Of a DNA stretch of 64,000 nt, positions 5,800 through 59,909 are shown piece after piece. The stretch comes from Alphaproteobacteria bacterium (GTDB lineage: Bacteria > Pseudomonadota > Alphaproteobacteria > Rs-D84). Where the stretch lies: positions 75,370 through 139,369 of the forward strand of contig JAVBUT010000002.1 of the NCBI GenBank assembly GCA_031555055.1. The letters run 5' to 3'. Positions within the stretch are counted from its first letter, which is position 1, and each line of letters begins with the position of its first letter. The notes beneath the pieces were generated by a model. It was not told where the DNA came from. It saw nothing but the letters and a program-made list of their open reading frames with translations, and did not search any database. The translations under genes were made by a program, and so were the position numbers.

Positions 5800-5805
5800 G
5801 ATTAA

Positions 5806-5868
5806 TTTATGATTTCTGATTTACGATTTAATAAAAAAATCAGAAATCAGCAATCATAAATCAGAAAT
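5806..5868. repeat. imperfect hairpin built from 7-nt units (TGATTTN / AATCAGA family) abutting the metG start
   Basis: The left arm is tttatgatttctgatttacgattt. The right arm is aaatcagaaatcagcaatcataaatcagaaat and runs directly into ATG 5869. Confidence 0.85.
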
Positions 5869-7884
5869 ATGAATAACAAATTTTTAATCACATCTGCACT
5901 GCCGTACGTTAACAACGTCTTGCATATCGGACATCTGATCGGTTGCTGGCTGCCATCGGACGTATATGCGCGCTTTTGCCGCAGCATGGGTCGCGATGTC
6001 TTGTTTATATGCGGCGCAGACGAATATGGAACCACCAGCGAAATTGGTGCACTGAAAGAAGGCATGCCCGTCGAAGAATACGTTGACAAGTATCGCACAG
6101 AACACGAAAAATCTGTTCGGGATTTTAATTTGTCATTTGATCTGTACGGGCGCACGCATACAGAACTACATACAAAACTGGTACAATCATTATTCACGCG
6201 TCTGGACGAAGAGGGGTTGATTGAAGAACGTACATCAATTCAACCATATTCAGTAAAAGACAAAATGTTTCTGGCCGATCGGTTTGTTATCGGCACATGC
6301 CCGAAATGCGGGTATGACAATGCGTACGGCAACGAATGTGGCCAGTGCGGCACAACACTGGACCCTGGTGATCTGATCAGTCCGCACAGTGCCGTGAACG
6401 CTGATTCTCCGGTCGAAATGCGCGAAACAAAACATCTGTACATCAAACTGTCCGCTATGCAGGACAAATTGCGCGCATGGATAGACTCACGCGTCGGCTG
6501 GCCAAAAACCGCGCTGACTATTGCGAACAAATGGCTGGACGAAGGGCTGCGCGATACGCCGATTACACGCGATCTCAAATGGGGTATTCCGGTAAACAAG
6601 CCAGGGTACGAGAATAAGGTTTTCTATGTGTGGTTTGATGCGCCGTGGGGATATGTTTCAATTTCACAGGCTGCCACCAAAGACTGGGAATCATGGTGGA
6701 AAAATCCAGACTGCCACTACAGACAATTTATGGGCAAAGATAATGTTGCATTCCACGCCGTAACATTTCCATCGCAGCAATTGGCGATCAATGACGGATG
6801 GAAAATGGTCGATGTGCTAAAGGCTTTGAATTTTCTAAATTTCGAAGGCGCAAAAATATCAAAATCGACCGGCAATGGAATTTTCCTGAACGAGGCAATA
6901 AAAGACGCACCGGCGGACGCGTGGCGTTATGCATTAATGGCGTCCGCGCCGGAAACGGATGATACGGACTTTACTATCCAGCGCTTTGCCGATATTGTCA
7001 ACAAGGACCTGAACGGCATGCTGGGGAACTTTGTTTCGCGCGTATGCAAACTGACCGAAAAGAATTTCGGGAATCAGGTACCCGCAGGGGCGAATAATAT
7101 TCGTCCAAATCATCAGGGCGAATGTGATTCGCCCCTACAAAAATCAATCAATGAAAAATTATCGGAATTGACTGCTGCGCTGGACGCGTGCGAATTTCGA
7201 AACGCCGTATTCGCACTGCGCGGACTGTGGGCGATCGGCAACGAATTTATGACGGAAACAGCGCCATGGACGATGGTTAAAAATGGTGATATGGATGGCG
7301 CTGGGGCCGCATTAAACGAATGTTTTCAGCTGATCGATTTTTATGCACGCGTATCCGCACCGTTTATTCCGGACGCGGCGGGGAAAATGCTTCGCATTTT
7401 CAGGAATCAGGAACCAGGAATCAGTTGGCCAAGCGCGTACGAACGCCGCATTGCGGCCGGCACAGAATTTGTCGTACCTGAAAATCTTTTCGAAAGAATC
7501 GATGATGATAAAATTAAATTGTTAACCGAAAAATACGCGTCAAAGAAACTGGACGCGCCGAAAATTGTTACCGCGAAAATATTGACTGTGGACGCGCACC
7601 CGACCAAGGAAGGCCTGGCGGTTCTGACCGTGGACGCGGGCGATGAAAAACCGCTGACAATCGTCTGTGGCGCGCCGAATGTACGGCCGGGCTTTGTCGG
7701 CGTATTGGCACACGTTGGCGCGATTTTGCCCGGCCAGAAAAAGCCGATCACAAAACGCGCTGTCGCCGGCGTCGAAAGCCATGGCATGATGTGCAGCGCC
7801 GCAGAGCTGGGCGTCGGCCAGGACGGTGACAATATTTTGGAACTGGCCGGCGACAGTATGATCGGCGTAAAGTTTAACGCCTAG
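5869..7884 (+). CDS. metG: methionyl-tRNA synthetase with C-terminal tRNA-binding OB-fold domain
   Basis: HIGH-type motif (PYVNNVLHIGHL), Zn knuckles (CPKCG...CGQCG) and KMSKS-type motif (KISKSTGNG). The C-terminal roughly 105 aa form a tRNA_bind-type domain. Confidence 0.9.
   Translation: MNNKFLITSALPYVNNVLHIGHLIGCWLPSDVYARFCRSMGRDVLFICGADEYGTTSEIGALKEGMPVEEYVDKYRTEHEKSVRDFNLSFDLYGRTHTELHTKLVQSLFTRLDEEGLIEERTSIQPYSVKDKMFLADRFVIGTCPKCGYDNAYGNECGQCGTTLDPGDLISPHSAVNADSPVEMRETKHLYIKLSAMQDKLRAWIDSRVGWPKTALTIANKWLDEGLRDTPITRDLKWGIPVNKPGYENKVFYVWFDAPWGYVSISQAATKDWESWWKNPDCHYRQFMGKDNVAFHAVTFPSQQLAINDGWKMVDVLKALNFLNFEGAKISKSTGNGIFLNEAIKDAPADAWRYALMASAPETDDTDFTIQRFADIVNKDLNGMLGNFVSRVCKLTEKNFGNQVPAGANNIRPNHQGECDSPLQKSINEKLSELTAALDACEFRNAVFALRGLWAIGNEFMTETAPWTMVKNGDMDGAGAALNECFQLIDFYARVSAPFIPDAAGKMLRIFRNQEPGISWPSAYERRIAAGTEFVVPENLFERIDDDKIKLLTEKYASKKLDAPKIVTAKILTVDAHPTKEGLAVLTVDAGDEKPLTIVCGAPNVRPGFVGVLAHVGAILPGQKKPITKRAVAGVESHGMMCSAAELGVGQDGDNILELAGDSMIGVKFNA
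7401..7424 (+). repeat. 7-nt tandem array inside metG
   Basis: caggaat caggaac caggaat cag, translated in-frame as RNQEPGIS. Confidence 0.8.
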
Positions 7885-7890
7885 GTCAAC

Positions 7891-8193
7891 ATGAATCCGA
7901 AGATTTTGCAAATTTACTTGTCGCACGCAAACGTCACATACGCGCCGATATACGGCGAAACATTGTCATGCGCGGATTGCACAAATCTGGGCATTTGCGA
8001 AAAAGATCGATATCTGTTTATGCCGAATTGCGCGGTTGCGAATTTTATTATGGAACGTGTTCCCGGCAACATCAGGTATAACGAAGGCGCACGCACCATG
8101 ATCGTGTCATACCGCGAACCGCGAACGCGACTGACAACGTTGCAGCACGCCGTCGATACAGCAAAACAGCAATTTTTTGCGAAAATGAAATGA
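7891..8193 (+). CDS. hypothetical protein
   Basis: 100-aa ORF filling the metG-queH gap. Its stop overlaps the queH start (ATGA). I recognise no motif. Confidence 0.4.
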   Translation: MNPKILQIYLSHANVTYAPIYGETLSCADCTNLGICEKDRYLFMPNCAVANFIMERVPGNIRYNEGARTMIVSYREPRTRLTTLQHAVDTAKQQFFAKMK

Positions 8194-8852
8194 GAAACTC
8201 TGATATCCGTCTTGTATTAGTATCATGCTGTGCGCCGTGCAGCGCGGGCGCAATCAAACAATTAGTGGATATATGCTCCTTGTCAAACTCCCCCCTTGCG
8301 GGGGAGTCGACCACGCTGTCATGCGGGTCGGTAGGGGGTATAACAAACAATGCAGATACCCCCCACCGGCGCTACGTGTCGACTCCACCACAAGGGGGGA
8401 GTTTAACCGACTTCATCGTATTATTTTATAACCCTAATATTTATCCCGATACGGAATATCAAAAAAGACTGGCCGAGCAGGTTCGATACTGCGAATCACT
8501 TGGCGTGAAATATCATGTCGGCAATTATGATCATACTGCGTGGCTGCGCGAGATTGCAGGTACCGAATCCGAACCGGAACGCGGCGCACGATGTTCCAGA
8601 TGTTTCAAGTATCGCTTTAAATACGCCGCAGAATTCGCACGCACCAACGGATATAATGCAATTGCCAGCGTACTTGGTGTATCACGCCATAAAGATCAAT
8701 CGCAAGTCGATGCCGCTGCCATAAATGTTTTGACCGACATTAAATACATCCCGATTAAGTGGGATGACGAATTAAGATCAAAAATCAATAAAAAAGCCGG
8801 CTTTTACAGGCAAAATTATTGTGGTTGCGAATTCTCTATCCGGAAAGTATAA
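8190..8852 (+). CDS. queH: epoxyqueuosine reductase QueH (DUF208) carrying a 40-codon repeat insertion
   Basis: Conserved Cys motifs CCAPCS, RCSRCF and NYCGCEFS plus FYNPNIYP..EY match QueH. The segment SNSPLAGESTTLSCGSVGGITNNADTPHRRYVSTPPQGGSL is encoded by the palindromic element at 8285-8404. Confidence 0.75.
   Translation: MRNSDIRLVLVSCCAPCSAGAIKQLVDICSLSNSPLAGESTTLSCGSVGGITNNADTPHRRYVSTPPQGGSLTDFIVLFYNPNIYPDTEYQKRLAEQVRYCESLGVKYHVGNYDHTAWLREIAGTESEPERGARCSRCFKYRFKYAAEFARTNGYNAIASVLGVSRHKDQSQVDAAAINVLTDIKYIPIKWDDELRSKINKKAGFYRQNYCGCEFSIRKV
8285..8404. repeat. 120-bp GC-rich palindromic element inserted in-frame in queH (RPE-like)
   Basis: aaactcccccctTG...CAaggggggagttt are the outer arms, and gggggagtcgac/gtcgactcc and ggtagggggta/tacccccc(a)cc are inner arms. 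Related copies lie at 17900-17960 and 44078-44108. Confidence 0.8.
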
Positions 8853-8882
8853 TTTATTTATAATTATAATAAGGAGTATCGC

Positions 8883-9758
8883 ATGTCTTCCATTTTCGTA
8901 TTCCCAGGCCAAGGGTCCCAGACCGTCGGCATGGGCAAAGAACTGTTTGATAACCATGAAATCGCGCGCCGCGTATTCGAAGAAGTTGACGACGCGCTGA
9001 ACCAGAAACTGTCCGATATTATATTCAACGGTCCAATGGAAACACTTACCATGACTGCAAATGTTCAGCCTGCAATTATGGCGGTTTCAATCGCAATGTT
9101 TCGGGCGTCTGGACTTGAAATCACGCCTTATGTCGCGGGCCACAGCCTGGGCGAATATTCCGCGTTGTGCGCGGCGGGATCATTATCACTGACGGATACG
9201 GCGCGTCTGTTGCGTCTGCGCGGTGACGCGATGCAGCGCGCGGTTCCGGTTGGCGTCGGCATGGTGTCTGTTATTATGGGATTGGATATAGACAAGGTCA
9301 CTGACATTTGTCGTGACACCGGGGCCGAAGTCGCAAATGACAACACACCCGGCCAGGTTGTAATATCCGGTCTGAAAGAAAATGTCGAACGCGCAATGGA
9401 AATCGCGAAAGAGCAGGGCGCCAAACGTGCAATGCCACTGCCATTGTCTGCGCCGGTTCACTGTTCGTTGCAAGAGGGGGCCGCGGACGAAATGCGTGCC
9501 GCCTTGGCCGACATTGATATGAAAATGCCAAAGGTTCCATTGATCTCTAACAAAACATGTACACCGCTGCACGGGCCGGCCGACATCAAAGAAGCGCTGG
9601 TATATCAGATAACGCATGGCGTACGCTGGCGCGAATCGGTGTTGGCAATGCCGGCACTGGGGATTACCGAAACAATCGAAGTCGGCCCGGGCAACGTGCT
9701 GACGGGCCTGACACCGCGCATCGTAGATTCCATGACATCCAGAAAGTTGGAGATATAA
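8883..9758 (+). CDS. fabD: malonyl-CoA:ACP transacylase
   Basis: FVFPGQGSQTVGMG and the active site GHSLGEYSAL. Confidence 0.9.
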   Translation: MSSIFVFPGQGSQTVGMGKELFDNHEIARRVFEEVDDALNQKLSDIIFNGPMETLTMTANVQPAIMAVSIAMFRASGLEITPYVAGHSLGEYSALCAAGSLSLTDTARLLRLRGDAMQRAVPVGVGMVSVIMGLDIDKVTDICRDTGAEVANDNTPGQVVISGLKENVERAMEIAKEQGAKRAMPLPLSAPVHCSLQEGAADEMRAALADIDMKMPKVPLISNKTCTPLHGPADIKEALVYQITHGVRWRESVLAMPALGITETIEVGPGNVLTGLTPRIVDSMTSRKLEI

Positions 9759-9762
9759 ACCA

Positions 9763-10029
9763 ATGCCGGAATGGTTGCTGATATTGTCAGAGATTATTAT
9801 ATTCGTCTGTGGCACAGGCGCAATTTGGCTGTTAAACCAGAATAACAAATATTCCAAGTACGGCGTATTGCTGGGGCTGTTTTCGGAACCGTTCTGGTTC
9901 GTATCCGCATACCACAGCCGTTCTTGGGGAATATTCGCGCTGACGTTCATATACACCGTATCATACATCGTTGGCGTATATAATTTCTGGTTCAGAAAAA
10001 AACAAACAAAATCAAAAAGCAAAAGGTAA
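9763..10029 (+). CDS. small integral membrane protein (hypothetical)
   Basis: 88 aa with three hydrophobic segments and a basic tail. It fills the fabD-fabG gap. Confidence 0.4.
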   Translation: MPEWLLILSEIIIFVCGTGAIWLLNQNNKYSKYGVLLGLFSEPFWFVSAYHSRSWGIFALTFIYTVSYIVGVYNFWFRKKQTKSKSKR

Positions 10030-10033
10030 AGAA

Positions 10034-10759
10034 ATGATATTAAAAGATAAAGTCGCGCTAATCACCGGCGCGACCGGCGGAATCGGCGGCGCAATCGCAC
10101 GCGAATTTAAGAATGTCGGCGCGACTGTTGTGGTGACCGGACGTTCTATGGAAAAATTAAACGCGGAATTTGATGACGGCTATATCAAAATCTCGGTTGA
10201 TATTTCCAAAGACGGTGCGGCCGACGAATTAATCAAAAGCACAATCGAGTCAGCTGGAAAAATCGATATCTTGGTCAATAACGCCGGCATTACCAAGGAT
10301 ACATTGTTAATGCGCATGACGGACGAACAGTTCGATGATGTTATCAACACCAACTTGCGCAGCTGTTTTAAACTGTGCCGCGCGGTAATTATGCCGATGA
10401 TCAAAAACAAGGGTGGCCGGATTATAAATATGGCGTCAATTATCGGTGCGATCGGCGGGCCGGGCCAGGCGAACTATGCGGCCAGCAAAGGCGGCATGAT
10501 CGCGATGACAAAATCCATTGCGGCGGAATACGCGTCGCGCGGGATTACTGCGAACTGTGTCGCACCAGGCTTTATCAAAACGCCGATGACGGATGTTTTG
10601 ACCGACGAATTAAAAGACGCGTATCTGAAACAAATCCCCGCCGGCAGATTCGGCGAACCAAGCGACATTGCGAATGCATGTATATTCTTGGCGTCTGATA
10701 TGGCATCGTATATCACCGGCCAGACAATCCACGTAAACGGCGGAATGGGAAGGTTTTAA
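10034..10759 (+). CDS. fabG: 3-oxoacyl-ACP reductase
   Basis: SDR motifs TGATGGIGGAIA, NNAG and YAASKGG in fabD context. I chose ATG 10034 (MILKDKVALITG) over the upstream track start. Confidence 0.85.
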   Translation: MILKDKVALITGATGGIGGAIAREFKNVGATVVVTGRSMEKLNAEFDDGYIKISVDISKDGAADELIKSTIESAGKIDILVNNAGITKDTLLMRMTDEQFDDVINTNLRSCFKLCRAVIMPMIKNKGGRIINMASIIGAIGGPGQANYAASKGGMIAMTKSIAAEYASRGITANCVAPGFIKTPMTDVLTDELKDAYLKQIPAGRFGEPSDIANACIFLASDMASYITGQTIHVNGGMGRF

Positions 10760-10763
10760 AAAC

Positions 10764-10835
10764 TAGCGCATAGCGAGATAGCAAATAGCGCATAGCGTTA
10801 TAGCGAAATCACTAATCACTATACGCTATGCGCTA
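10764..10835. repeat. 7-nt tandem array with palindromic ends (TAGCGCA family)
   Basis: tagcgca tagcgag atagcaa atagcgc atagcgt tatagcg aaatcac taatcac tatacgc tatgcgc ta. The ends tagcgcatagcg and cgctatgcgcta are inverted. The array runs into the candidate mnmG start codons. Confidence 0.85.
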
Positions 10836-12514
10836 TGAACTATATGCTAATGTTAAATTACGACGTAATCATCATCGGTGGGGGGCATGCGGGCGTGGAA
10901 AGCGCAACCGCATCTGCGCGCCGTGGCGCAAACACACTGCTGATTACAAAATCAAAATCCGACCTGGGGGCGATGTCATGCAATCCATCGATCGGTGGTC
11001 CCGGCAAATCACAAATGGTCGCAGAAATGGACGCACTGGGCGGGATTATGCCAATTGCGGCAGATCGCGCGGGAATTCATTGGCGAACGCTGAACGCGAC
11101 CCATGGCGCGGCAACGACGGCCTTGCGCGCGCAGATTGATCGTAAAAAATATCACAACGCGATTGTGGAAATACTATCAGATTATCCGAATTTGACTGTC
11201 GAGTTTGGCGATGTTGAAACATTGGATTTAGAAAATAAAATCGTCAATGGAAACTATTCGGCGCACGCGATTGTTTTAACCACGGGGACTTTCCTGGGCG
11301 GACTGGTCACACGCGGGGCCGAAAAAATCGAATCAGGTCGTCTGCGCGACGATAATACATACCAGGAAAACGATAAAAATATATCAAAAATACTGCAAAA
11401 GGCCGGCTTTTCGATATTAAGATTGAAAACCGGAACGCCCGCACGCATATGGCGCGATTCGATTGATTTTTCCGTCTGCGAAGTGCAATCCAGTGATCTG
11501 GAACACGAATATTTTTCCGGAACGCCACGAATCACGAATCACGAACCACAAATCACGAATTGCTATATCACACACACAAACGAATCTGTTCATCAGTTTA
11601 TCCGCGATAATATTACCGACGCGCCGATGTATAACGGCGATATAACAGGCACCGGGCCGCGATATTGCCCAAGTCTGGAAGACAAGGTCATGCGTTTTCC
11701 GGAACACAAATCGCACCATGTTTTTCTGGAACCCGAAGGCACGGACAGTGATCTGATTTATCCCAACGGAATTTCAACCAGTATGAGTGCCGACGCCCAG
11801 GACAAATGGATACGCATGATCCCAGGACTGGAGAATGCGCGGATCGAACGGTACGGATATGCGATCGAATATGACGCGATTGACGCACGTGCACTGAAAC
11901 CGACGTTGGAATCCAAAGATATTCCGGGACTGTTTTTTGCCGGCCAGATCAACGGCACATCCGGATACGAAGAAGCCGCCGCCCAAGGCATCGTTGCAGG
12001 CGCGAATGCGGCCGGATGTGCGATGGGCGAATATGATTCTCCCATACAAATCGATCGCACGAATTCCATGATCGGGGTTATGATTGACGACATCACAACG
12101 CTGGGCGTGGACGAACCTTACCGTATGTTCACATCACGCGCGGAATTTCGATTGTCGCTGCGCGCGGATAATGCAATTGCGCGTCTGGGTGATATGGCGG
12201 TCAAATTAAATTTGATAACGGAACCCGAACGAAAACAAAAACATGATCAAAAGGCCGGTAAAATCACCGAAAATGATAAATTTTATGCCGGATATATCGC
12301 ACGGAATTTGCGCGAAATCGAAAGTTATAAACGCGATGCAGATTTAAAAATCCCGGAAAATTTCGATTATAAATCATTACCGGGCCTGACCAATGAATTG
12401 GTTGAAAAATTATCCAGAACACGTCCCGCGAATATCGCGTCGCTGGCGCGGATTCCGGGAATTACCCCGGCGGGAATCATGGTCGTACTGCGCAAAATAA
12501 GGACAGGGAATTAA
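10835..12514 (+). CDS. mnmG: tRNA uridine-5-carboxymethylaminomethyl modification enzyme MnmG (GidA)
   Basis: YDVIIIGGGHAGVE FAD motif, GPRYCPSLEDK, and the C-terminal RIPGITPAG. The start is ambiguous (ATG 10835, 10844 or 10850, all in frame). Confidence 0.9.
   Translation: MNYMLMLNYDVIIIGGGHAGVESATASARRGANTLLITKSKSDLGAMSCNPSIGGPGKSQMVAEMDALGGIMPIAADRAGIHWRTLNATHGAATTALRAQIDRKKYHNAIVEILSDYPNLTVEFGDVETLDLENKIVNGNYSAHAIVLTTGTFLGGLVTRGAEKIESGRLRDDNTYQENDKNISKILQKAGFSILRLKTGTPARIWRDSIDFSVCEVQSSDLEHEYFSGTPRITNHEPQITNCYITHTNESVHQFIRDNITDAPMYNGDITGTGPRYCPSLEDKVMRFPEHKSHHVFLEPEGTDSDLIYPNGISTSMSADAQDKWIRMIPGLENARIERYGYAIEYDAIDARALKPTLESKDIPGLFFAGQINGTSGYEEAAAQGIVAGANAAGCAMGEYDSPIQIDRTNSMIGVMIDDITTLGVDEPYRMFTSRAEFRLSLRADNAIARLGDMAVKLNLITEPERKQKHDQKAGKITENDKFYAGYIARNLREIESYKRDADLKIPENFDYKSLPGLTNELVEKLSRTRPANIASLARIPGITPAGIMVVLRKIRTGN
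11526..11560 (+). repeat. 7-nt tandem array inside mnmG
   Basis: cacgaat cacgaat cacgaac cacaaat cacgaat, translated as PRITNHEPQITN. Confidence 0.8.
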
Positions 12515-13113: not shown

Positions 13114-13125
13114 CATAAAATTGTT

Positions 13126-13149
13126 AATGGACGCACTTTTGCGTCCATT
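13126..13149 (+). terminator. hairpin downstream of tRNA-Thr(CGT)
   Basis: aatggacgca-cttt-tgcgtccatt followed by taaaatttt. It is paralogous to the hairpin after tRNA-Thr(GGT). Confidence 0.5.
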
Positions 13150-13331
13150 TAAAATTTTATAGTGCCCACCGTAGTCCGCCAACGGCGCGACGAATGTCGG
13201 GCTATCCAAAAACACATAAAACTTTTTCATCACCGGCTTTTTTGCCGGTTTTTTATTGCGGAATTGCTTCCTGATGATTGTCGGAATCTTTTGTTATAGT
13301 ATTCTGTACAAGTTTACACAAAGGAGAAACT

Positions 13332-17174: not shown

Positions 17175-17603
17175 ATGACAAAAAAGAAAGAAATTATAAA
17201 CGCGGCAGAAAAAAAGTTCGTGGGCAAAATGCACCCGATTACAAAAAAGTATCTGGAACAATTGTACGGTATGACCCGAATATTCGCTTCATGCGACGCC
17301 TTTGGAAATTACACAGATACCGAAGATTGTTTCTGCATATACCCAAACAACAAGGACCAGATCGGACAAATTACAAATCTGCTGGCGATGGTAGGTGTTC
17401 AAAAAATAAAAGAAATAACCGTCAAGGCACCGAAAACGGAAACAGTGATTCTGTTGCCATATCTGGCCAGCAATATTGGATTCCAACGCATTGCGGTCGA
17501 AATGATCGCAAAAGAATTCAAAGACATGGCCCATAAAAACAATGACCTGATGTTTTCATCGATAAAACAAATGTACGCCGCCGAACAAGGCAAAAACAGG
17601 TAA
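17175..17603 (+). CDS. hypothetical protein
   Basis: 142-aa ORF tightly packed between ileS and nth. Its stop overlaps the nth start. Confidence 0.4.
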   Translation: MTKKKEIINAAEKKFVGKMHPITKKYLEQLYGMTRIFASCDAFGNYTDTEDCFCIYPNNKDQIGQITNLLAMVGVQKIKEITVKAPKTETVILLPYLASNIGFQRIAVEMIAKEFKDMAHKNNDLMFSSIKQMYAAEQGKNR

Positions 17604-18310
17604 TGAAATTAACACCGGAAATTTATTTTCGCGAAGTGCCCCGGGTTCTGGACATGGATATCCGGACAGAGTTATACACGACAAATGAATTCACATTGGC
17701 GGTGGCGGTGATTTTGTCGGCCCAGACAACCGACAAACAGGTTAACACTGTGACGCCAACGCTGTTCGCGATTGCAGACACGCCGGAAAAGATGTTGGTT
17801 TTGGGCGAAAATGGTTTGAAAAACCATATCAAAACAATTTCATTTTTTAATAACAAGGCAAAAAACATTATCGGATTATCAGTACAACTGGCACAGACTA
17901 ATTACTCCCCCCCTGAGGGGGAGTCGACCGCGCCATCATGCGGGTCGGTGGGGGGTAATTCCGACTGGAAATTTTCACCCGAATACCACAATCGCGACGC
18001 GCTGATGAAATTGCCGGGGATTGGTCAGAAAACCGCGAATGTCATAATGAACGTTTGCTGGGGTGAACCATTGCTGGGGGTGGACACGCACGTATTCCGC
18101 AATGCACACCGTTATGGATGGGTTGATAAATCAGACAATACGCCTGAAAAAGTTGAAGCAAAATTAATGAAATTTATTCCGAAAAAGTACCACGCAATGG
18201 CGAATCACGTAATGGTCTTGCACGGGCGTTATATATGCCAGGCCCGCCACCCAAAATGCGGTGAATGTCCGGTTGCAAAATGGTGCGAATCCAAGGATAA
18301 AATTATTTAA
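17603..18310 (+). CDS. nth: endonuclease III with repeat-encoded insertion
   Basis: HhH-GPD features (LPGIGQKTANVIMN, GVDTHVFR) and the 4Fe-4S motif C..R.PKCGECPVAKWC. There are about 22 extra aa (PPEGESTAPSCGSVGGNS...) between the helices compared with E. coli Nth. Confidence 0.85.
   Translation: MKLTPEIYFREVPRVLDMDIRTELYTTNEFTLAVAVILSAQTTDKQVNTVTPTLFAIADTPEKMLVLGENGLKNHIKTISFFNNKAKNIIGLSVQLAQTNYSPPEGESTAPSCGSVGGNSDWKFSPEYHNRDALMKLPGIGQKTANVIMNVCWGEPLLGVDTHVFRNAHRYGWVDKSDNTPEKVEAKLMKFIPKKYHAMANHVMVLHGRYICQARHPKCGECPVAKWCESKDKII
17900..17960. repeat. GC-rich hairpin element (half-size RPE-like copy) inside nth
   Basis: aattactccccccctgagggggagtcgaccgcgccatcatgcgggtcggtggggggtaatt is nearly identical to the left half of the queH element. 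Confidence 0.8.
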
Positions 18311-20335: not shown

Positions 20336-20345
20336 TTTATACTCC

Positions 20346-20394
20346 GTAATTCGTGACTCGTGATTCGTGACTCGAATTACGAATCACGAATTAA
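20346..20394. repeat. 7-nt array hairpin in the pheS-pheT intercistronic gap
   Basis: gtaattc gtgactc gtgattc gtgactc gaattac gaatcac gaattaa, with inverted matches gtaattcg/cgaattac and cgtgattcg/cgaatcacg. Confidence 0.85.
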
Positions 20395-20397
20395 GAG

Positions 20398-21384
20398 TTA
20401 CGACTTTATCTGTTTAAACACCCGCATATCCATTCCGTACAATTCCCGCATATTTGCGCCGGTAAATTCGCCGGCCAGGCGCGATGTGCCGAATCCGAAT
20501 GCAAAGCCAGTCACGCGGTCCGGATCAAACCCGAAATTTCGCATAACACGTGGCGACACCATTCCCGCGCCCACAATTGTAATCCATTTCCCGGACGCGG
20601 TTTTAATGTCTGCGCCGATTGACGGTTCGGTGTATGGGTAATACTTTGGCTTGAATCGCACTTGGACTTCCGGACCATAAATCTCGCGCAGGATATATTC
20701 CAGCGTACCCTTTAATTCTGAAACTTTCATATCATGACCAACCATCAGACCTTCGAATTGATGAAATATCGCCAGGTGGGTTGCATCGACGGCTTCGTTA
20801 CGATAAACGCGGCCCGGGGAAACAATACGTATCGGCAGTTTGGATTCATCACCTTTTAAATCCATCATATAACGGCTTTGCACGGATGTGGTGTGCGTAC
20901 GCAGGACGATTTTATCTTTCTTGATCCAGAAAGTGTCCTGCATATCGCGGGCAGGGTGGTTTTCATCAATATCCAACAGATCGAAATTGTACTTTGGCTC
21001 CTCTACCTCTGGTCCGGTAACCGCGACAAAGCCCAGACGCGCCATGGCGGCGATACACTTTTCTTCGATAACCGACACCGGGTGGCGCGCGCCGCATTCC
21101 GTACCAATACCCGGCAGGGTCATATCAAAGGTATCATTTTGCAATTTCTGATTTATGATTGCCAATTGCTGATTTTTCTTGGCATTCTCGATCAGTTCTT
21201 CAATTTCCATGCGCAGTTTATTAATTTCAGCACCCGCCGCGGCACGTTTATCCGGCGTCAGATCGCGCAAGGCGTCCATTTGCGCCTTGATCTCGCTTTT
21301 TTTGCCCAAGTATTTGGATTTTATATTATCCAAGTCCTGGGGCGTCTTTGCGCCGGCTAATTCTTTTTGCAGTTCTTTGATCAT
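20398..21384 (-). CDS. pheS: phenylalanyl-tRNA synthetase alpha subunit
   Basis: Class II motifs ([19 protein letters not shown]-like [15 protein letters not shown]) and a typical coiled-coil N-terminus. Confidence 0.9.
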
Positions 21385-22465: not shown

Positions 22466-22528
22466 CGTGATTCGTAATTAGTGATTCATGATTCGAAAAC
22501 CATAAATCATAAACTACCAATCATAAAT
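22466..22528. repeat. 7-nt tandem array upstream of rpmI
   Basis: cgtgatt cgtaatt agtgatt catgatt cgaaaac cataaat cataaac taccaat cataaat. A second short array (acgaatc acaagtc acgaatc) lies at 22613-22636. Confidence 0.8.
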
Positions 22529-22710
22529 TAAGCTTTGATGGCAACGCCGTGCCATTTCAAGCCCGCCAATTATTGCTTAAAATATAAAAAAAGCAAGTTT
22601 TTTATTCGATTTACGAATCACAAGTCACGAATCACGTTTAAGTTTTTATTGAATGTTATGATTTTAAATATTACCCTGACCCTGTAAAACACATTCCCGG
22701 ACATAATGTT

Positions 22711-23532
22711 ATGAACCAAAAAAAGATATCTTCACGCGTTTATCAGATAGTTAAATCCGCCCTGGCGGCCGCAATTTTGCCGGTGTTTTTGATATATATT
22801 ATGATTGATAAGCCCGATTACAGGATAATGAACGCCGCGTCCCATGTCGTTCTGCCGGTGGCGAACTGGGTCGGTGACGTGGTTTCGTGGCCAATCCGCG
22901 CAATCGGCAATGCTGTTGGCGGAATCCGCGAACTGTCGAATCTGCACGACGAGAACGAAGAACTGCGTGCAAAACTGGACGAAAATCTGCAGGCCCGCCA
23001 CGAATACGATGTCGCAATATCGGAAAACCAGCGTCTGCGCCGGGAATTGGACATTGCGCGCGCCATGCCGCAAAAGGTGATCGTCGCCGGCGTTTCGTAC
23101 GATAATTCCGCATTTCATCATAATACGTTCTTTATAAACAAGGGTGTAAACGCCGGGATAGAAGCCGGCATGGCGGTCGTGTCGTTTGACCGCGTCTTGG
23201 TCGGCATAGTATCCGATGTTGGCGCGAATTTCGCACGGGTGCGCGCGCTGGCCGATTCCAAGTCAAATATTCCGGTCCGCATCGCCGGATCAGAAGTATA
23301 TGGATTTTTGGCCGGCAACGGTTCTGACGGGGCATCAATCGGATTTTTGAGTGATCCGGAATTCCAGGCGACACCAGGGCTAAAACTGATCACCAGCAGC
23401 ATTCGCGGCGTATTGCCGGACGGAATTTATGTCGGCGAAATGACAAACGACAAAGACGTTAACATTCTGCCAATGTCGCGCGTCAGCGATGTAATGGTGC
23501 TGCAGTTTAATAACAAGGACAGATATAAGTGA
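22711..23532 (+). CDS. mreC: rod shape-determining protein MreC
   Basis: N-terminal TM segment, coiled coil (ENEELRAKLDEN...NQRLRREL) and beta-barrel domains (GMAVVS...LVGIVSDV). It sits upstream of mreD, mrdA and rodA. Confidence 0.85.
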   Translation: MNQKKISSRVYQIVKSALAAAILPVFLIYIMIDKPDYRIMNAASHVVLPVANWVGDVVSWPIRAIGNAVGGIRELSNLHDENEELRAKLDENLQARHEYDVAISENQRLRRELDIARAMPQKVIVAGVSYDNSAFHHNTFFINKGVNAGIEAGMAVVSFDRVLVGIVSDVGANFARVRALADSKSNIPVRIAGSEVYGFLAGNGSDGASIGFLSDPEFQATPGLKLITSSIRGVLPDGIYVGEMTNDKDVNILPMSRVSDVMVLQFNNKDRYK

Positions 23533-23591
23533 CAGTGTCAGTGTCAGTTACAGAAAAGGTTACTGACACTGACACTGACACTGACACCGAC
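23533..23591. repeat. hexamer-array hairpin (GTGACA)n / (TGACAC)n in the mreC-mreD gap
   Basis: gtgacagtgtcagtgtcagt-tacagaaaaggtta-ctgacactgacactgacactgacac. A near-identical copy lies at 47906-47968. Confidence 0.85.
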
Positions 23592-24032
23592 ATGAAATAC
23601 ATACGTCTCATCTTTCCGTTTCTGGTCACGATTTTATTGTGGCGGTTATCGGTGCCGTTTTGGAATCCGGCCGGTATTCTGGCCATGATTCCGATATTCT
23701 ATTATTCTTTTATTCGCCCAACGCCATGGTTTGCGCCATTCGCAGGAATTTTTTGTTTTTTGATCGACTATCGGTTTGATACACTGTTGTTTTGGACATC
23801 ATTGTACTGTTTGTTTTACGCGGTGAACGGATTGCAGAACTTTGTCGATCTGACACGGCAAAAGTACGACGGCGCACTGGTGTTCCTGGGATACTTTGGC
23901 GCCGCATTGCTGATACTGGCGCTGATGGGATGGAACTGGACCGGACTGGCGCGCGCTATATGGCTGTTTCTGTGGGCTGGAATATGGTATATGCCTTTTA
24001 CATCATTATCAAAAAGGTTGCTTGATGATTGA
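23592..24032 (+). CDS. mreD: rod shape-determining protein MreD
   Basis: Multi-pass hydrophobic protein of about 146 aa in mreC-mrdA context. I prefer ATG 23592 to GTG 23529, whose extra residues are purely repeat-encoded (TVSVSVTEKVTDTDTDTDTD). Confidence 0.7.
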   Translation: MKYIRLIFPFLVTILLWRLSVPFWNPAGILAMIPIFYYSFIRPTPWFAPFAGIFCFLIDYRFDTLLFWTSLYCLFYAVNGLQNFVDLTRQKYDGALVFLGYFGAALLILALMGWNWTGLARAIWLFLWAGIWYMPFTSLSKRLLDD

Positions 24033-29656: not shown

Positions 29657-31282
29657 ATGGCAAACACCGGGCGCAATTTCACAGACGAGCTACGCGAAAG
29701 ATTATCAATCGTCGACGTTGTTGGGCGGCGCGTGCCGCTGAATAAAAAAGGCCAGAATTTTTGGGGATGCTGTCCGTTTCATAATGAAAAGACCCCCAGT
29801 TTTTCCGTTAATGAAGAAAAAGGTTTTTACCACTGTTTCGGGTGTGGCGAACACGGCGATATAATCTCATTCGTGATGAAGTCAAATAATATGGACTTTA
29901 AGTCCGCGATCGCGGAGCTGGCCCAAATGGCCGGCCTGAAAATGCCGGAATACAAACCAAAAAGCGCAGAGCAGGTAAAGCGCGAAGAAACCTATATCGA
30001 CATCACGGAATCCGCCACCAGATTATATCAGCAAAAGTTGTTTGAGCCCGACGGCGCGGTGGCATTGGCATACGTGCGCAAGCGCGGATTCACCGACGAT
30101 ATGATAAAAAAATACCGCCTGGGGTATGCGCCTAAAAACAACACGATCGCAAACAAATTCGCAAACACCAAACAGGATACTTTGATTGCGACCGGCCTGT
30201 GTCGGCGCGGCGATTACGGAATGTATGACTTTTTCCGCGACAAATTAATGTTCCCGATTATGAACCCAAACGGCCAGGTGATTGCTTTTTCCGGACGTTC
30301 GTTGGACGGATCGGAACCAAAATATATCAACACATCCGACACGGAATTGTTTCATAAAAGAAAAACTGTATTCGGCCTGAACTTTGCGCGCGATTCGATA
30401 CATCGCAGCAACCGCGCAATCGTGGTCGAAGGACAGATCGACGCAATCCAAATGCAATGTCATGGATTCGGCGAAACTGTCGCGCCACTGGGGACCGCAC
30501 TGACCGAAGATCATATCGCGATACTATGCAAACTGAATCGCAACATCACGTTTTGCTTTGACGGCGACAATGCAGGACAAAAGGCTGCGGCGCGCGCATG
30601 TGGCATAATTCTGGCATTTATACGGGATAATTCTGAAATCAAATTTGCGTTTATGCCAAAGGGCTCTGACCCGGACGAGATATTAAGGAATCAGTCTGCT
30701 GGTAATGAAAAAATGAAATCAATCATTGATTGTGCAATACCTTTGGTTGATTTTTTGTGGAACCTGGCAAATACCGGATTTCTGGTATCGACACCGGGCG
30801 GACGCACCCAGTCCGAAAAATTTTTGAAAAAAGAATTGGAAAAAATCACCGATCCGGATTTAAAAAAAGAATTTTCCAAAGAATACGATTCACGAAAATT
30901 CAAACACTGGCACAGCTGGAAAAAGGATGTAGGGGCGAATATAAATTCGCCCGTGCCAAACGTTGACGCAATCACAACAAAAACATTGCGCGAGATTGTT
31001 GAACATTTTCCGGACCTGGCCGAACGTCACGGCGAATTCTTGGCAACCTTAAATATATCGTTTGACGGCGGTCCGGATAAAACAAATATGACTGTCGCAG
31101 ATGCTGAAAAATTCATCGTGTCGTTAAAGTTAAAAAAGTATCTGGAAAAATTAAACGCGGAACGTAAAGCGCTGACCGTAAAAATACTGACCGGCGACAA
31201 CGCCAGCAAAGACAGGATTTCCGCTATCGACGCCGAGATTGCAAAATCAAACGAACGTTTGCAAAAATTGAGCGATATATAG
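29657..31282 (+). CDS. dnaG: DNA primase
   Basis: Zn finger CCPFHNEKTPSFSV...YHCFGCGEHGD and a Toprim core (VVEGQIDAI, FDGDNAGQKAA). Confidence 0.9.
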   Translation: MANTGRNFTDELRERLSIVDVVGRRVPLNKKGQNFWGCCPFHNEKTPSFSVNEEKGFYHCFGCGEHGDIISFVMKSNNMDFKSAIAELAQMAGLKMPEYKPKSAEQVKREETYIDITESATRLYQQKLFEPDGAVALAYVRKRGFTDDMIKKYRLGYAPKNNTIANKFANTKQDTLIATGLCRRGDYGMYDFFRDKLMFPIMNPNGQVIAFSGRSLDGSEPKYINTSDTELFHKRKTVFGLNFARDSIHRSNRAIVVEGQIDAIQMQCHGFGETVAPLGTALTEDHIAILCKLNRNITFCFDGDNAGQKAAARACGIILAFIRDNSEIKFAFMPKGSDPDEILRNQSAGNEKMKSIIDCAIPLVDFLWNLANTGFLVSTPGGRTQSEKFLKKELEKITDPDLKKEFSKEYDSRKFKHWHSWKKDVGANINSPVPNVDAITTKTLREIVEHFPDLAERHGEFLATLNISFDGGPDKTNMTVADAEKFIVSLKLKKYLEKLNAERKALTVKILTGDNASKDRISAIDAEIAKSNERLQKLSDI

Positions 31283-43990: not shown

Positions 43991-44259
43991 TAGTCGATAG
44001 TCATTAGTAGGGGCGCAGTCCGAAACGCGCCCCCTACATAAAAAAAAGTATGTCACCCCCCTCGGTCGCTTTGCGACCACTCCCCCCGCAAGCGGGGTGA
44101 GACGCGACAGAGCGTAGGGGCGCATACTTGCGCCCTTTGTTTCTCGTACGCGCGGGTTTGTAGGGGCGCAGTCCGAAACGCGCCATCTGATTTAACTGGG
44201 TTGCTTCGCGTTCGCTCGCAATGACGGATTTGTTCTTAATCACTAAATACTATCGACTA
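43991..44259. mobile_element. MITE-like composite repeat with 18-bp terminal inverted repeats
   Basis: The left end is tagtcgatagtcattagt (43991-44008). The reverse complement of the right end (44242-44259) is tagtcgatagtatttagt, a 16/18 match. The interior is packed with GC-rich hairpins (gtaggggcgca... three times, plus an RPE-like core at 44078-44108) and has no ORF. Confidence 0.4.
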
Positions 44260-50504: not shown

Positions 50505-50546
50505 TAGTCATTAGTCACTAGTCATTAGTCAATAGTCAATAGTGCG
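50505..50546. repeat. 7-nt tandem array (TAGTCAT family) upstream of gyrB
   Basis: tagtcat tagtcac tagtcat tagtcaa tagtcaa tagtgcg. An inverted partial copy (cgactattgactagttgcta) lies at 50571-50590. Confidence 0.85.
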
Positions 50547-50644
50547 AAAATATGCGATAAATCCAATGATCGACTATTGACTAGTTGCTATAAAATTGCT
50601 ATGTTTCAAGGGCAAAAAACACAATAAGAAAATACAGAAAGTAG

Positions 50645-53076: not shown

Positions 53077-53448
53077 ATGACTTTATATGAAGAAACAATA
53101 AACTTGGTAAATCAAATTATAACCACAGGATCAAGCGGTATAAACGACAGCAAGAGACTTGCGCTGGTTGTCCGTTTAAAAGAACATCTGCAACGCCCAG
53201 AGGTTGCGATACCACAACGTACATTAAAAGCGAATTTAGAAAGAGTTTTAAACAATCGCCAACATTACATGACGACTTCTGATTTTATAAATGATTTAAT
53301 TATGGTAGTTGATGATTTTAAAAAGAAAACGATTTTATTGGATAAGGCAAAACAAAAAATGAAATCTGTTTCTGATTCTGTCCAAGATTTTACAATCGCA
53401 GAAGACGGTACGATAATCCGACATAATTTCAATGATCGGGAAAAATAA
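53077..53448 (+). CDS. hypothetical protein
   Basis: 123-aa ORF. Its stop overlaps the next start (TAATG). I recognise no motif. Confidence 0.35.
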   Translation: MTLYEETINLVNQIITTGSSGINDSKRLALVVRLKEHLQRPEVAIPQRTLKANLERVLNNRQHYMTTSDFINDLIMVVDDFKKKTILLDKAKQKMKSVSDSVQDFTIAEDGTIIRHNFNDREK

Positions 53449-54206
53449 TGTTCACACGCGAATGGTTTTTTGATCTGGATCGGCGTCTGCGTGATGCCGG
53501 CTTGGATTCAGACCGTTCGACGTTTGATGAAATATTAAAAAATCTTCAACCCGCCGCCGCCAAGGCTATGGCGGGCAAAGAAAGCCGGCTTTTGACACCT
53601 GATGAATTCGCACACGAGTGTATTTACGTAATCCTGGCGTCCGGGTTTTCACAAAAAACCGCCAAACGAAAACATACCGAGATTATGGAATATATCAAAA
53701 AGGCCGGTAAAAATCCAATTTTGGAAGAATTGTTAAAAATTTTTAACAACAAAAACAAAATGAATGCGATTATTAAAATTTGGAACAATCGTGAACGGTA
53801 TCAAAACGACTATTATTCAATTAAAAAAAATCATAAATCAGAAATCATAAATCAGAAATTGACTTTTTTATCCACGTTGCCACACATTGGAAAAATAACC
53901 GCGAATCATCTGGCGCGGAATCTGGGTGAAAACGTTGTGAAATACGATATTTGGATTCAGCGACTTGGTGTTTGCTTTGCAAACAAATTCTCAAATTGCA
54001 ATGTTCAAAGTTCAAATATAGATAATGGTAAACTTTGTCCGGAAATTAAATCCGCATGCGATGAAATGTTTGCGCATTTGTCGCGCGAGACAAATCTGCC
54101 AATCGGATATATTGACGTCGTGTTATGGAAGGCAAGCCAGAATAATTTAATTCCACTCCTGCGGAGTGGTGTCGGCGCTGTTTTGCGCGACGGGGAGGGT
54201 TCATGA
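53448..54206 (+). CDS. helix-hairpin-helix protein, possible DNA-glycosylase-like
   Basis: LSTLPHIGKITANHLARNLG looks like an HhH motif. The gene is translationally coupled to ung and contains a 7-nt array. This is a weak call. Confidence 0.3.
   Translation: MFTREWFFDLDRRLRDAGLDSDRSTFDEILKNLQPAAAKAMAGKESRLLTPDEFAHECIYVILASGFSQKTAKRKHTEIMEYIKKAGKNPILEELLKIFNNKNKMNAIIKIWNNRERYQNDYYSIKKNHKSEIINQKLTFLSTLPHIGKITANHLARNLGENVVKYDIWIQRLGVCFANKFSNCNVQSSNIDNGKLCPEIKSACDEMFAHLSRETNLPIGYIDVVLWKASQNNLIPLLRSGVGAVLRDGEGS
53828..53862 (+). repeat. 7-nt tandem array inside the HhH protein gene
   Basis: aaatcat aaatcag aaatcat aaatcag aaattga, translated as NHKSEIINQKL. Confidence 0.85.
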
Positions 54207-57759: not shown

Positions 57760-57930
57760 CTGGTCAAGACGTTATTACCCGCCCCAAATGGGCGGGTCGA
57801 AATGCGTCAGCATTTCGGGGTGGGGCAGGAATGTGGAATAATGTATAGTTTTTATAACCACACCCCGAAAAATGCAGCGCATGAGCGGCTTGCATTTTTC
57901 GGCCCGCCCGGGGCGGGCGGGTGATAACAA
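57760..57930. repeat. cluster of four GC-rich hairpins
   Basis: acccgcccc-aaat-gggcgggt, cgaaatgc-gtca-gcatttcg, ccgaaaaatgca...tgcatttttcgg and gcccgccc-gggg-cgggcgggt. Confidence 0.7.
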
Positions 57931-58049: not shown

Positions 58050-58390
58050 CCAAAAATTGTTGATGGCCGCATTTGCGGCCATTTAGAATTTTTGAGTGCC
58101 CGCCGGAGTTTTAACGAAGGCTGGGCCGGCTTGCCAGACGAAGCGTTCCGCGAAGTTTGGTTGTGATGAAGTCACGAAAACTTGACGTAGACCAAGGTCA
58201 CCAAGAGTTCGGCAAGTCCGATATCTTGGTTTAAAAAATGGTCAGATTTTGATAATTATCGGACTATTTTGCGAAAAGCCTTAGATGCCTTGCCCCGTGC
58301 AAATTTTTAATGCAAATCAGAATTTTTTGATTATAATTATCTCACAAATCAATTTGAGAGAGAAGATTGTAGTTTGGGTGGAATAATAAA

Positions 58391-59554: not shown

Positions 59555-59909
59555 ATTGGATTTGAAGGTCTGGATTTTCGAGTGTAATGTTGTGTAAAGG
59601 TTGCTGTGATTAGCGTGCCGCACGAAGCCCAAAGGGCGAAGTGTGGTCCGATGATGCCACCCAGCCTTCGCCGAGGCTTCGGCGGGCACAGCGGCAAGGC
59701 GCACCACCAAAAATTGTTGATGGCCGCATTCGCGGCCGTTTAAAATTTTTGAGTGCCCGCCGGAGTTTTAACGAAGGCTGGGCCGGCTTGCCAGACGAAG
59801 CCTTGGCGTAGTCTGATTATGATGGCGCGTCCATTGGGCGCGTTTTTTATTATTTTTGCTTGCTATTGACAAATTTTGTTTTAGAATAAGTTGTAAAAGA
59901 GGTGCGATT

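Follow-up and report, generated by a model that had tools for sequence, protein, structure and literature searches.

An inverted doublet lying in frame within an alphaproteobacterial queH gene belongs to a cross-phylum family of structured repeats whose units also bracket DUF559 genes

Rickettsia palindromic elements (RPEs) are the textbook case of palindromic repeats that reside in frame within protein-coding genes, and we know of no enzyme associated with them. BoxC/PIT/TM motifs have been known since the 1990s and have been tied to genome instability; to our knowledge, neither an origin nor a means of spread has been proposed for them. REP families, in turn, are usually species-specific. 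Here we describe an element that has features in common with all three: a 120-nt palindrome located in frame within queH, the gene for the epoxyqueuosine reductase QueH, on a 64,000-nt stretch of alphaproteobacterial DNA (contig JAVBUT010000002.1, at least 283 kb long, of assembly GCA_031555055.1; hereafter, the window). We found that this queH segment belongs to a family of structured repeat units distributed across phyla, that family members in other genomes, too, commonly reside in frame, and that the units are physically associated with DUF559 genes. The bracketing of DUF559 genes by inverted units is the most notable result of the analysis.

Several properties of the previously described systems are relevant here. 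RPEs code for a peptide that is conserved, and proteins tolerate them in surface loops (review PMC10969869). The E. coli BoxC/PIT/TM motif, the subject of earlier BoxC/PIT work by Bachellier and by Hoyne/Maher (cited in PMC4666352), is reported to be always intergenic, and its describers state that they never found mobility functions nearby (Holder et al. 2015, PMC4666352). Five of its 23 E. coli copies form doublets, motifs of this kind have a very wide taxonomic spread with no function known, and intrastrand triplex formation by the E. coli motif has been shown in vitro (PMC4666352). The ITxF definition given in the same work demands loops of 1-6 nt between blocks (PMC4666352). Whalefall-1 was described as a candidate small RNA (sRNA) found only in a whale-fall sample (Weinberg et al. 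2010, PMC2864571). Finally, the Vsr-like group of proteins includes proven homing endonucleases (PMC3424549, PMC3239194, PMC2677866).

The host gene, queH (8190-8852, plus strand), is an open reading frame (ORF) for 220 residues whose product matches PF02677 with E = 1e-40. The element itself (8285-8404, plus strand; AAACTCCCCCCTTGCGGGGGAGTCGACC...GTCGACTCCACCACAAGGGGGGAGTTT) is an inverted doublet made of two repeat units and a short centre; its 120 nt are an exact multiple of three and supply about 40 extra residues, SNSPLAGESTTLSCGSVGGITNNADTPHRRYVSTPPQGGSL. The outer arms (8282-8311 and 8378-8407), as delimited by a repeat finder, are 30 nt long and 90% complementary, so that the inverted repeat spans 8282-8407, and the inner pair (8329-8341 and 8356-8368) is 13 nt long and 92% complementary. 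The predicted single-stranded RNA fold of 8275-8414 has an energy of -77.4 kcal/mol compared with -47.0 +/- 4.2 kcal/mol in dinucleotide shuffles (z = -7.3), none of the 200 shuffles being as stable. A first-pass annotation, made from the DNA letters alone, had reported an in-frame palindrome of this length with nested arms, and arms, frame and length all turned out to be as described. It had also called the segment GC-rich relative to its surroundings, which stands for the comparison with the window as a whole (60.8% versus 46.0%), but the contrast is only modest in 120-nt sliding windows.

The palindrome is a lineage-specific insertion in a surface loop of an otherwise intact QueH. There are 3354 database relatives of QueH, and nearly all of the best 120 are 176-187 residues long. 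In an alignment with 16 orthologues, mostly of 176-196 residues, the segment between ...QL(V/A)D and DFIVLFYNPNIYP is 48 residues long in the window protein and 9 residues long in a typical orthologue, so that 39-40 residues have been gained; orthologues of about 180 residues are thus devoid of the insertion, just as had been supposed. Every invariant QueH column is kept, including CCAPCS and the C-terminal YCGCEF, and no further lesion was found, which speaks against the gene simply decaying. The Pfam match is confined to residues 74-218, and the solved QueH structure (PDB 7lc5) is alignable to the window protein only from residue 76 on. In the AlphaFold2 model (pTM 0.78) the predicted local confidence (pLDDT) exceeds 90 on both sides of the insert, whereas residues 33-71, located between a helix (15-32) and a strand (72-79), form a coil with pLDDT below 50 for 37-63. 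The anticipated surface loop is modelled as a low-confidence coil inside a confidently folded core. The allele is also present in an independent assembly: a Logan contig from SRR23967709 (L001) is 100% identical to window positions 6052-11980, insert included. Judging by its sequence, the window QueH is most likely still functional, with the insert translated as part of the protein.

Both halves of the palindrome correspond to one and the same repeat unit. We built a covariance model (R1) from 33 short units of other genomes, excluding the window, and scanned the window with filters off. R1 matches the left unit (8285-8340, plus strand) over the full model length with 55.6 bits (E = 1.2e-12) and the inverted, partly decayed right unit (8357-8404, minus strand) with 42.5 bits (E = 2.9e-9); with the window excluded from the model, these two matches are not due to chance. 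In the left unit, hairpin 1 pairs 8287-8294 with 8300-8307 (ACTCCCCC/GGGGGAGT), hairpin 2 occupies 8308-8330 (CGACC..GGTCG, with one bulge) and a G-rich third block follows at 8331-8339 (GTAGGGGGT). The right unit retains hairpin 1 with a single mismatch (GGTGGAGT); its hairpin 2 is degenerate.

In total, R1 detected six units at four loci in the 64 kb. The best-scoring one, a half-unit at 17902-17957 (plus strand; 61.5 bits, E = 3.5e-14), lies within nth, the gene for endonuclease III (ORF 17603-18310), where it is again in frame and is read as YSPPEGESTAPSCGSVGG. By blastn, 54 nt of it (17904-17957) are 89% identical to the queH element. The unit is translated in the same frame in both proteins, as SPLAGESTTLSCGSVGG in QueH and SPPEGESTAPSCGSVGG in Nth, yielding the common peptide pattern SPLAGEST..SCGSVGG and SPPEGEST..SCGSVGG, respectively. 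The HhH-GPD domain of Nth spans residues 34-194, and 42 of the 46 syntenic Nth orthologues have a gap of 15-20 residues at the position of the insert. The first-pass suggestion that the queH element behaves like an RPE while representing another sequence family is thus substantiated by a second in-frame copy read in the same unit frame, and a model derived from other genomes matches both halves of the element as well as further window copies. The identity of the family, its in-frame habit elsewhere and the existence of DUF559-bearing members are additions to that earlier account.

The family reaches far beyond the window. Among GTDB species representatives, the motif ACTCCCCCC-N3-6-GGGGGAGTCGAC, which has 21 specified bases and for which about one chance match is estimated in 596 Gb, occurs in more than 117 stretches, usually several per genome. 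Its carriers are metagenome-assembled genomes (MAGs) labelled Alphaproteobacteria/Rickettsiales, Acidimicrobiia/Actinomycetota, Acidobacteria, Nitrospinota, Deferribacteraceae, Gammaproteobacteria, Arenicellales, Pseudohongiella and others, and at least six phyla are represented among the MAGs in which the units are multi-copy. Within 707 kb of motif-bearing loci R1 found 217 units, many as plus/minus pairs. They follow a common plan: a first hairpin, ACTCCCCCC-TTGA-GGGGGAGT, a second one of the type CGAC-variable hairpin-GTCG and a third block, GTGGGGGGT, are followed by a variable centre and then by the reverse complement of the three blocks. Many loci have one half only, like the nth copy. 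As a specificity check, R1 was run on 80 syntenic QueH loci (1.39 Mb) from the nearest relatives of the window; at E <0.1, only a termite-gut MAG labelled 'Rickettsiales bacterium' yielded any unit. These relatives are Candidatus Enterousia and other gut Alphaproteobacteria with about 52-60% QueH identity. A pattern derived from the two window copies, GAGTCGACC-N7-CATGCGGGTCGG, had no match in genome contigs; hairpin 2 is subfamily-specific. Likewise, a search of the protein database with the 44-residue insert peptide returned no candidates, a metagenome scan for the window's own subfamily gave no further copies, and a canonical doublet had no blastn match in a plasmid collection.

Residence in reading frames is recurrent in these other genomes. 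The 150 best units were grouped into 117 element clusters, and each cluster was checked for a stop-free frame with long flanks. Hosts verified by Pfam, with domains on both sides of the insert, are an aminoacyl-tRNA synthetase (aaRS) of the IleRS type (L026), HsdS (L054), a MacB/FtsX-type permease (L093), XseA (L045), a P-type ATPase (L065), Tgt (L088), an AddB-like nuclease (L076), PrmC (L100) and a methyltransferase (L098), making at least nine loci in all. The peptide NSPLEGEST recurs, in the same frame as in the window, and one of the three forward frames of hairpin 1 contains a TGA contributed by the canonical TTGA loop. Together with QueH and Nth, these nine hosts display the behaviour typical of RPEs, namely in-frame presence in unrelated genes with a recurrent peptide. 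The in-frame copies may well be what selection leaves over.

The same loops are occupied in close relatives. In the closest QueH (L002, 63-67% identity), the insertion site holds a 45-nt half-unit that R1 matches with 17 bits (E = 0.004) and that reads ...QLVDTI-NSPLGRGVGVADGV-DFTQIS.... In the termite-gut MAG (L003), Nth contains a full doublet at the site of the window nth half-unit, and QueH has two other palindromic inserts. One of them (L003:10075-10195; GTAGAGCGCAGAGCG.../...CGCTCTGCGACCTGCGATCTACGCTC) is an unrelated palindrome that lies, like the window element, between alpha-1 and beta-2, meaning that this loop of QueH has been occupied by at least two repeat families. In addition, two Nth proteins syntenic to window 17603-18310 (L184 and L186) have, in the Nth loop that holds the window half-unit, a different hairpin insert (FPFTCEGVPGNTRRGSCEGGDRGTRWG) some 25 residues long, to which R1 gave no match. 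The queH and nth insertions are probably old and inherited, or else these loops have been hit repeatedly.

The unit, of about 55 nt, consists of a C-run/G-run hairpin 1, a covarying hairpin 2 and a mirrored G-rich tract. For hairpin 2, both-side changes are seen in 6 of 9 pairs in a hand alignment and in all 9 pairs in a 150-unit model alignment, in which 93% of cells are paired versus 40-55% with slid partners, although the latter alignment was fitted to the model and so favours the structure. Hairpin 1 has both-side changes in 3 of 8 pairs (AU to GC, UA to CG and CG to UA) and hardly varies otherwise, which is in part a consequence of the way in which copies were identified. We compared the third block with the purine arm column by column in 139 distinct units. 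An arm A faces T (123 sequences) or A (8), an arm G at that position is accompanied by a third-block G in 5 of 6 cases, and a change of arm G to A elsewhere by a third-block A in 6 of 6. BoxC/PIT/TM motifs are defined by three consecutive blocks, the third of which mirrors the purine arm in G*G, A*A or T*A triplets. The left queH unit displays these blocks (ACTCCCCC / GGGGGAGT / GGTAGGGGG) with one mismatched triplet, the third block of the nth copy is a perfect mirror (GGTGGGGGG), and the units are multi-copy and form inverted pairs, as the six window units and the 217 units of the motif-bearing loci illustrate. We therefore class the element with the BoxC/PIT/TM motifs, as a structural variant whose loop 2 is enlarged to a hairpin; the triplex is proposed by analogy.

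Other assignments fit less well. The strict ITxF loop rule (1-6 nt, PMC4666352) is violated, as loop 1 measures 4-5 nt and loop 2 15-40 nt with a hairpin of its own. Apart from tRNAs, Rfam at gathering thresholds recognised nothing in the window. One canonical family copy (L027:5379-5435) aligns end to end with the whalefall-1 model (RF01762) at 33.6 bits (E = 7e-6), short of the threshold of 37 bits; the nth copy scores 13.2 bits and the queH copy gives no hit. True whalefall-1 matches (44.5 and 37.6 bits) occur as an inverted pair in the same MAG as a canonical family copy. The element is thus close to whalefall-1 but not a member by score. The designation of a miniature inverted-repeat transposable element was rejected: terminal inverted repeats are present, but no target-site duplication was seen at 54 doublets or at the window copy, and the ORF-bearing form codes for a PD-(D/E)XK endonuclease, not for any known transposase. 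The doublet in the window is itself ORF-less. The possibility of an intein or homing insertion was dismissed as well, as Pfam identified in ten in-frame composites host domains plus DUF559/MTES_1575 only, with no Hint blocks.

The link to DUF559 emerged from the long inserts. In two loci (L026 and L054) these hold a DUF559 domain (PF04480, E = 1e-34 to 1e-42) between inverted units. A tblastn search of all retrieved loci with these domains revealed the same unit-DUF559-unit layout in L093; this composite is intergenic, and the start of its ORF lies immediately within the left unit. L009, in which a DUF559 gene likewise sits among units, is ambiguous: the ORF adjoins a doublet or lies between doublets, the unit downstream of it begins another doublet, and the contig stops short of the upstream side. 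A case in QueH itself is provided by homologue P0032, which carries PF04480. Its DNA (L201, GCA_031554955.1; L201:3511-3971) contains a unit, DUF559 and an inverted unit in frame in QueH, in the loop preceding I.Y.PIKWDE, a different loop from that of the window insert. L201 was also assembled in Logan SRR23967709, the run that yielded L001, and represents a related organism from the same sample. The central loop of the window doublet (8341-8356, no strand assigned) corresponds to the position of the DUF559 gene in the ORF-bearing relatives, an equivalence drawn from composites L093, L026, L054, L201, L203, L212 and L214.

We also approached the association from the protein side, using the 80 closest DUF559 loci among GTDB representatives. 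In many of them R1 located a plus unit just upstream and a minus unit just downstream of the ORF. A model-free comparison (blastn of upstream against downstream sequence, minus strand) detected a significant inverted repeat hugging the ORF in 56 of 74 loci, or 76%, a proportion that holds for this subfamily only, the loci being the closest kin of DUF559 genes already flanked by units. The same test was positive for 0 of 51 QueH genes and 11 of 204 arbitrary segments, these control genomes being of lower GC. The DUF559-flanking repeats are almost all of the type CCCTCTCCC-loop-GGGAGAGGG-(hairpin)-TTAGGGTGAGGG, and their cultured carriers include Sphingopyxis, Sphingomonas, Bradyrhizobium, Pseudoxanthomonas, Dyella, Luteimonas and Legionella, among them Sphingopyxis sp. 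H053, Pseudoxanthomonas mexicana SDU_PSEU2, Dyella sp. RRB7 and Legionella anisa (loci L205, L256, L266 and L279). When E. coli genomes were searched with a DUF559 gene of Leclercia, no match at the DNA level was obtained.

Seven of the 74 composites are in frame and open across the locus, all within recognisable genes: a class I aaRS (L212, L234), HsdS (L214, L217, L220), PriA (L203) and a radical-SAM enzyme (L225). Four HsdS composites, from four phyla, share one site and differ in unit variants, and three aaRS composites lie at three sites. The HsdS junction, found in MAGs of Pseudohongiella (L054), Candidatus Binatia (L214), Pseudomonadales (L217) and Nitrospira (L220), reads ...FDPVRAKAAL, insert, DWTVERARAYLD.... 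These four HsdS genes are highly similar, while the flanking unit variants and their reading frames differ. The shared site could reflect either one insertion moved with a horizontally transferred restriction-modification system or repeated homing. In the literature, the coverage of which was incomplete, we found no report linking these repeats to DUF559 or to coding regions, nor any of the hairpin-in-loop-2 variant as a dispersed repeat. Because of this incomplete coverage, novelty is provisional.

Most probably, the queH element is a non-autonomous, ORF-less inverted doublet of the widespread structured-repeat family, tolerated by selection. The doublet would have entered queH in an ancestor of the lineage, in the loop between helix alpha-1 (after CCAPCS) and strand beta-2. 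It would have survived there owing to a length that is a multiple of three, the absence of stops in the used frame and a Gly/Pro/Ser-rich, probably disordered loop. The repeat would since have been carried along and translated, with the imperfect right arm reflecting slow decay. As to its spread, DUF559, a Vsr-like PD-(D/E)XK domain, may act on the structured ends of the full-size relatives, either mobilising the elements as RAYT does REPINs or homing into existing doublets. From these sequence relationships we infer a catalytic role of DUF559 in the spread, the doublet being a non-autonomous derivative. Taken further, and here we are tentative, the BoxC/PIT/TM/whalefall-1 repeats might represent the structured ends of an unrecognised class of mobile elements with a DUF559 enzyme. 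ORF-less doublets would then be comparable to REPINs, and the class would colonise permissive loops of essential genes (aaRS, PriA, QueH, Nth, Tgt, HsdS), being read through as domain or linker insertions, an intein-like niche without protein splicing.

This explanation has a competitor that we consider rather unlikely, yet deserving of attention: the repeats may spread by host recombination, replication slippage at structured DNA or an unseen transposase, with DUF559 being a selfish homing invader of the centre of pre-existing doublets or a passenger. Such a scenario would be in line with only about 4 of the 117 element clusters carrying the ORF, with the lack of mobility genes near E. coli BoxC/TM (PMC4666352) and of a match to the Leclercia gene in E. 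coli DNA, with the known homing endonucleases among Vsr-like domains (PMC3239194, PMC2677866, PMC3424549) and with the composites of four phyla at one HsdS site. However, the rarity of the ORF does not discriminate, as REP/RAYT likewise feature one enzyme gene and many ORF-less copies; the aaRS insertions at three different sites argue against strict homing, and no other candidate enzyme was seen beside the units. The comparison with REP/RAYT also raises the question of whether the element is itself a REPIN moved by RAYT, a Y1 tyrosine transposase. Its REPIN-like doublet-of-hairpins layout and the presence of separate REP-like GTAGGGGCGCA palindromes in the window would agree with this. We nevertheless regard it as very improbable, since the units start with ACTCC and lack a 5' GTAG, the gene bracketed by inverted units is DUF559 (PF04480) rather than a Y1 transposase, a finding that did not include a RAYT scan of the window ORFs, and the unit is near-identical across phyla, unlike the usual species-specific REP families.

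It is similarly hard to believe that the element is a functional structured RNA, be it a whalefall-1-like sRNA or an mRNA regulatory structure in queH, even though whalefall-1 is listed as a candidate sRNA (PMC2864571), hairpin 2 covaries and a very stable fold is predicted. Hairpins of single-stranded DNA should covary just as much, and the mirrored G-tract suits a purine-motif triplex, which reportedly does not form in RNA (PMC4666352). Moreover, the units are dispersed repeats in up to dozens of copies, which occur in both orientations to genes and as inverted pairs with no consistent gene neighbourhood. At the protein level, the open frame and the related insert in the same loop of the closest relative, implying that the insertion has persisted, could be taken to mean that the extra 40 residues are an adaptive, exapted lineage-specific QueH domain. 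The chances of this seem slim: the peptide is predicted to be disordered, the same peptide frame is found in unrelated proteins, the right arm is decaying at the DNA level and 80 relatives do without the insert. Least credible of all is a decaying queH pseudogene or an assembly artefact. This exact allele is indeed known from one genome only (protein cluster size 1), but the ORF is intact with its invariant residues kept and its core confidently predicted, the identical sequence appears in an independent assembly, and family copies are present elsewhere in the window.

A number of observations nonetheless count against our reading of a DUF559-linked mobile family tolerated in queH. The element can be read without stops in three of its six frames, which makes an open frame alone a weak sign of selection. 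Direct signs of mobility were looked for in vain: a metagenome scan for an empty queH site, with the flanks joined, found none and hence no presence/absence polymorphism. Neither the window copy nor any of 54 doublets ended in a target-site duplication; in the doublets the inverted repeat simply continues for 2-5 nt, as TC..GA, ACC..GGT or AA..TT. By tblastn, there is no DUF559 homologue in the 64-kb window, the genome beyond which was unseen. The kin-based choice of DUF559 loci, the lower GC of the control genomes and the sub-threshold whalefall-1 scores belong here as well. The triplet covariation comes from few subfamilies and so maybe from few independent events. A crude comparison of mirror and direct repeats favoured the mirror only about 1.6-1.9 fold (136 versus 84 and 222 versus 117); that test counted both hairpin strands, G-runs match promiscuously, and it has been superseded by the column-wise covariation test.

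These findings have several consequences. RPE-like colonisation of coding genes is not peculiar to Rickettsia: another and far more widespread family does the same in several phyla and in essential genes, which matters for gene calling, for protein-family models and for the origin of new loops and linkers in proteins. DUF559 bracketing offers a concrete, testable candidate for the origin or spread of BoxC/PIT/TM motifs and suggests a function for a large DUF family. As for whalefall-1, it would be reinterpreted as belonging to a DNA repeat instead of being an sRNA.

The remaining family copies in the window are intergenic or weak. A doublet of a variant unit (57775-57920, no strand assigned; ACCCGCCCC..GGGCGGGT..GGGGTGGGG) lies between an SDR gene and a tRNA-Thr gene, its halves matching R1 at 57775-57827 (plus strand, 40.2 bits) and 57856-57920 (minus strand, 20.5 bits). 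A diverged single unit at 44054-44102 (minus strand; 23.2 bits, E = 2.8e-4) is overlapped by no ORF of 70 or more residues. A candidate at a gene junction (54148-54202, plus strand) scores 13 bits (E = 0.12) and is not significant; it codes for the last ~17 residues of ORF 53448-54206, and an GGGGAGGG tract is found just 5' of the next ATG, that of an ung-like gene.

The window is also rich in repeats of other types. Palindromes of the GTAGGGGCGCA... type, with the 5' GTAG typical of REP, number 8 at no more than one mismatch compared with 0.76 expected. Exact copies are located at 44007-44017, 44114-44124 and 44160-44170, within 170 nt and adjoining the intergenic triplex-type unit, and copies with one mismatch each at 30929 and 31298. 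In metG (ORF 5869-7884), which encodes the methionyl-tRNA synthetase MetRS, 27 nt (9 residues) are inserted in frame by comparison with 79 syntenic MetRS orthologues, and the insertion (7086-7136) coincides with two REP-like hairpins (GGGGCGAATAATATTCGTCC and GGGCGAATGTGATTCGCCCCTAC). This is a further repeat type, unrelated to the queH family, that an essential gene houses in its reading frame. Between metG and queH, an ORF for 100 residues (7891-8193) overlaps the queH start by 4 nt; it has no Pfam match and is probably a real conserved small gene because ORFs of similar size occur at the same position in L003 (106 residues) and L201 (124 residues). An intergenic GC-rich palindrome at 59660-59782 has arms CCCAGCCTTCGCCGAGGCTTCGGCGGGCAC / GTGCCCGCCGG..GAAGGCTGGG of 30 nt that are 80% complementary, and its motif CCTTCGCCGAGGCT(A/T)CGG..GGCGGGCA also forms the second in-frame QueH insert of L003 (10530-10600). 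AT-rich hairpins of tandem heptamers and their inverse (e.g. TGATTCG/CGAATCA and GTGTCAG/CTGACAC) are found at 5805-5868, 10778-10843, 20345-20402, 22466-22636, 23528-23592 and 50519-50590; they are intergenic, one of them right after a tRNA-Val gene. Similar GC-rich heptamer arrays lie 3' of triplex-type units in Acidimicrobiia loci L021, L028 and L030. Finally, the hairpin AAAATTGTTRATGGNCGCA...TGCGNCCATTTAAAATTTT is repeated at 13115-13160, 58051-58094 and 59703-59750 and is probably a shared terminator, because two of the copies are directly downstream of tRNA-Thr genes.

Overall, the family combines traits of several known systems, and each of them differs from it in some respect. The DUF559 composite takes up the in-frame niche of inteins; unlike inteins and introns, it has no splicing domains that Pfam could find, appears to be read through and ends in structured inverted repeats. 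Vsr-like homing endonucleases (I-Bth0305I, 'fractured genes') belong to the same Vsr/DUF559 fold group and likewise reside inside essential genes, with aaRS, PriA and recA-type targets (PMC3239194, PMC2677866, PMC3424549). With whalefall-1 the units share a CUCUCC/GGAGAG-type hairpin, a second variable hairpin and then GGGUGAGG, although whalefall-1 was not described as a dispersed repeat, as present in coding regions or as gene-linked. The parallel with REP/REPIN-RAYT extends to short hairpin units, dispersed inverted doublets and one enzyme gene bracketed by inverted units. Here, however, the enzyme is a PD-(D/E)XK Vsr-like DUF559 protein and not a Y1 HUH one, there is no GTAG, and the units are conserved across phyla and tolerated inside genes. 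RPEs are similar in being palindromes of about 100-150 bp that often occupy the reading frames of unrelated housekeeping genes, in an alphaproteobacterium whose genome is reduced. The present family is set apart from them by description, not by comparison with an RPE consensus, as G/C-rich with triplex-type units, as occurring in several phyla instead of one genus and as having an ORF-bearing form. The closest likeness in architecture is to BoxC/PIT/TM: pyrimidine and purine arms plus a mirrored G-rich block, in G/C-rich, multi-copy, widespread units that form inverted pairs, and the DUF559-flanking inverted repeats (CCCTCTCCC..GGGAGAGGG..TTAGGGTGAGGG) are that very motif. What distinguishes the present family is a loop 2 that is a covarying hairpin bounded by CGAC/GTCG, arms of the C6/G6 type, its presence in frame in protein genes and its bracketing of DUF559.

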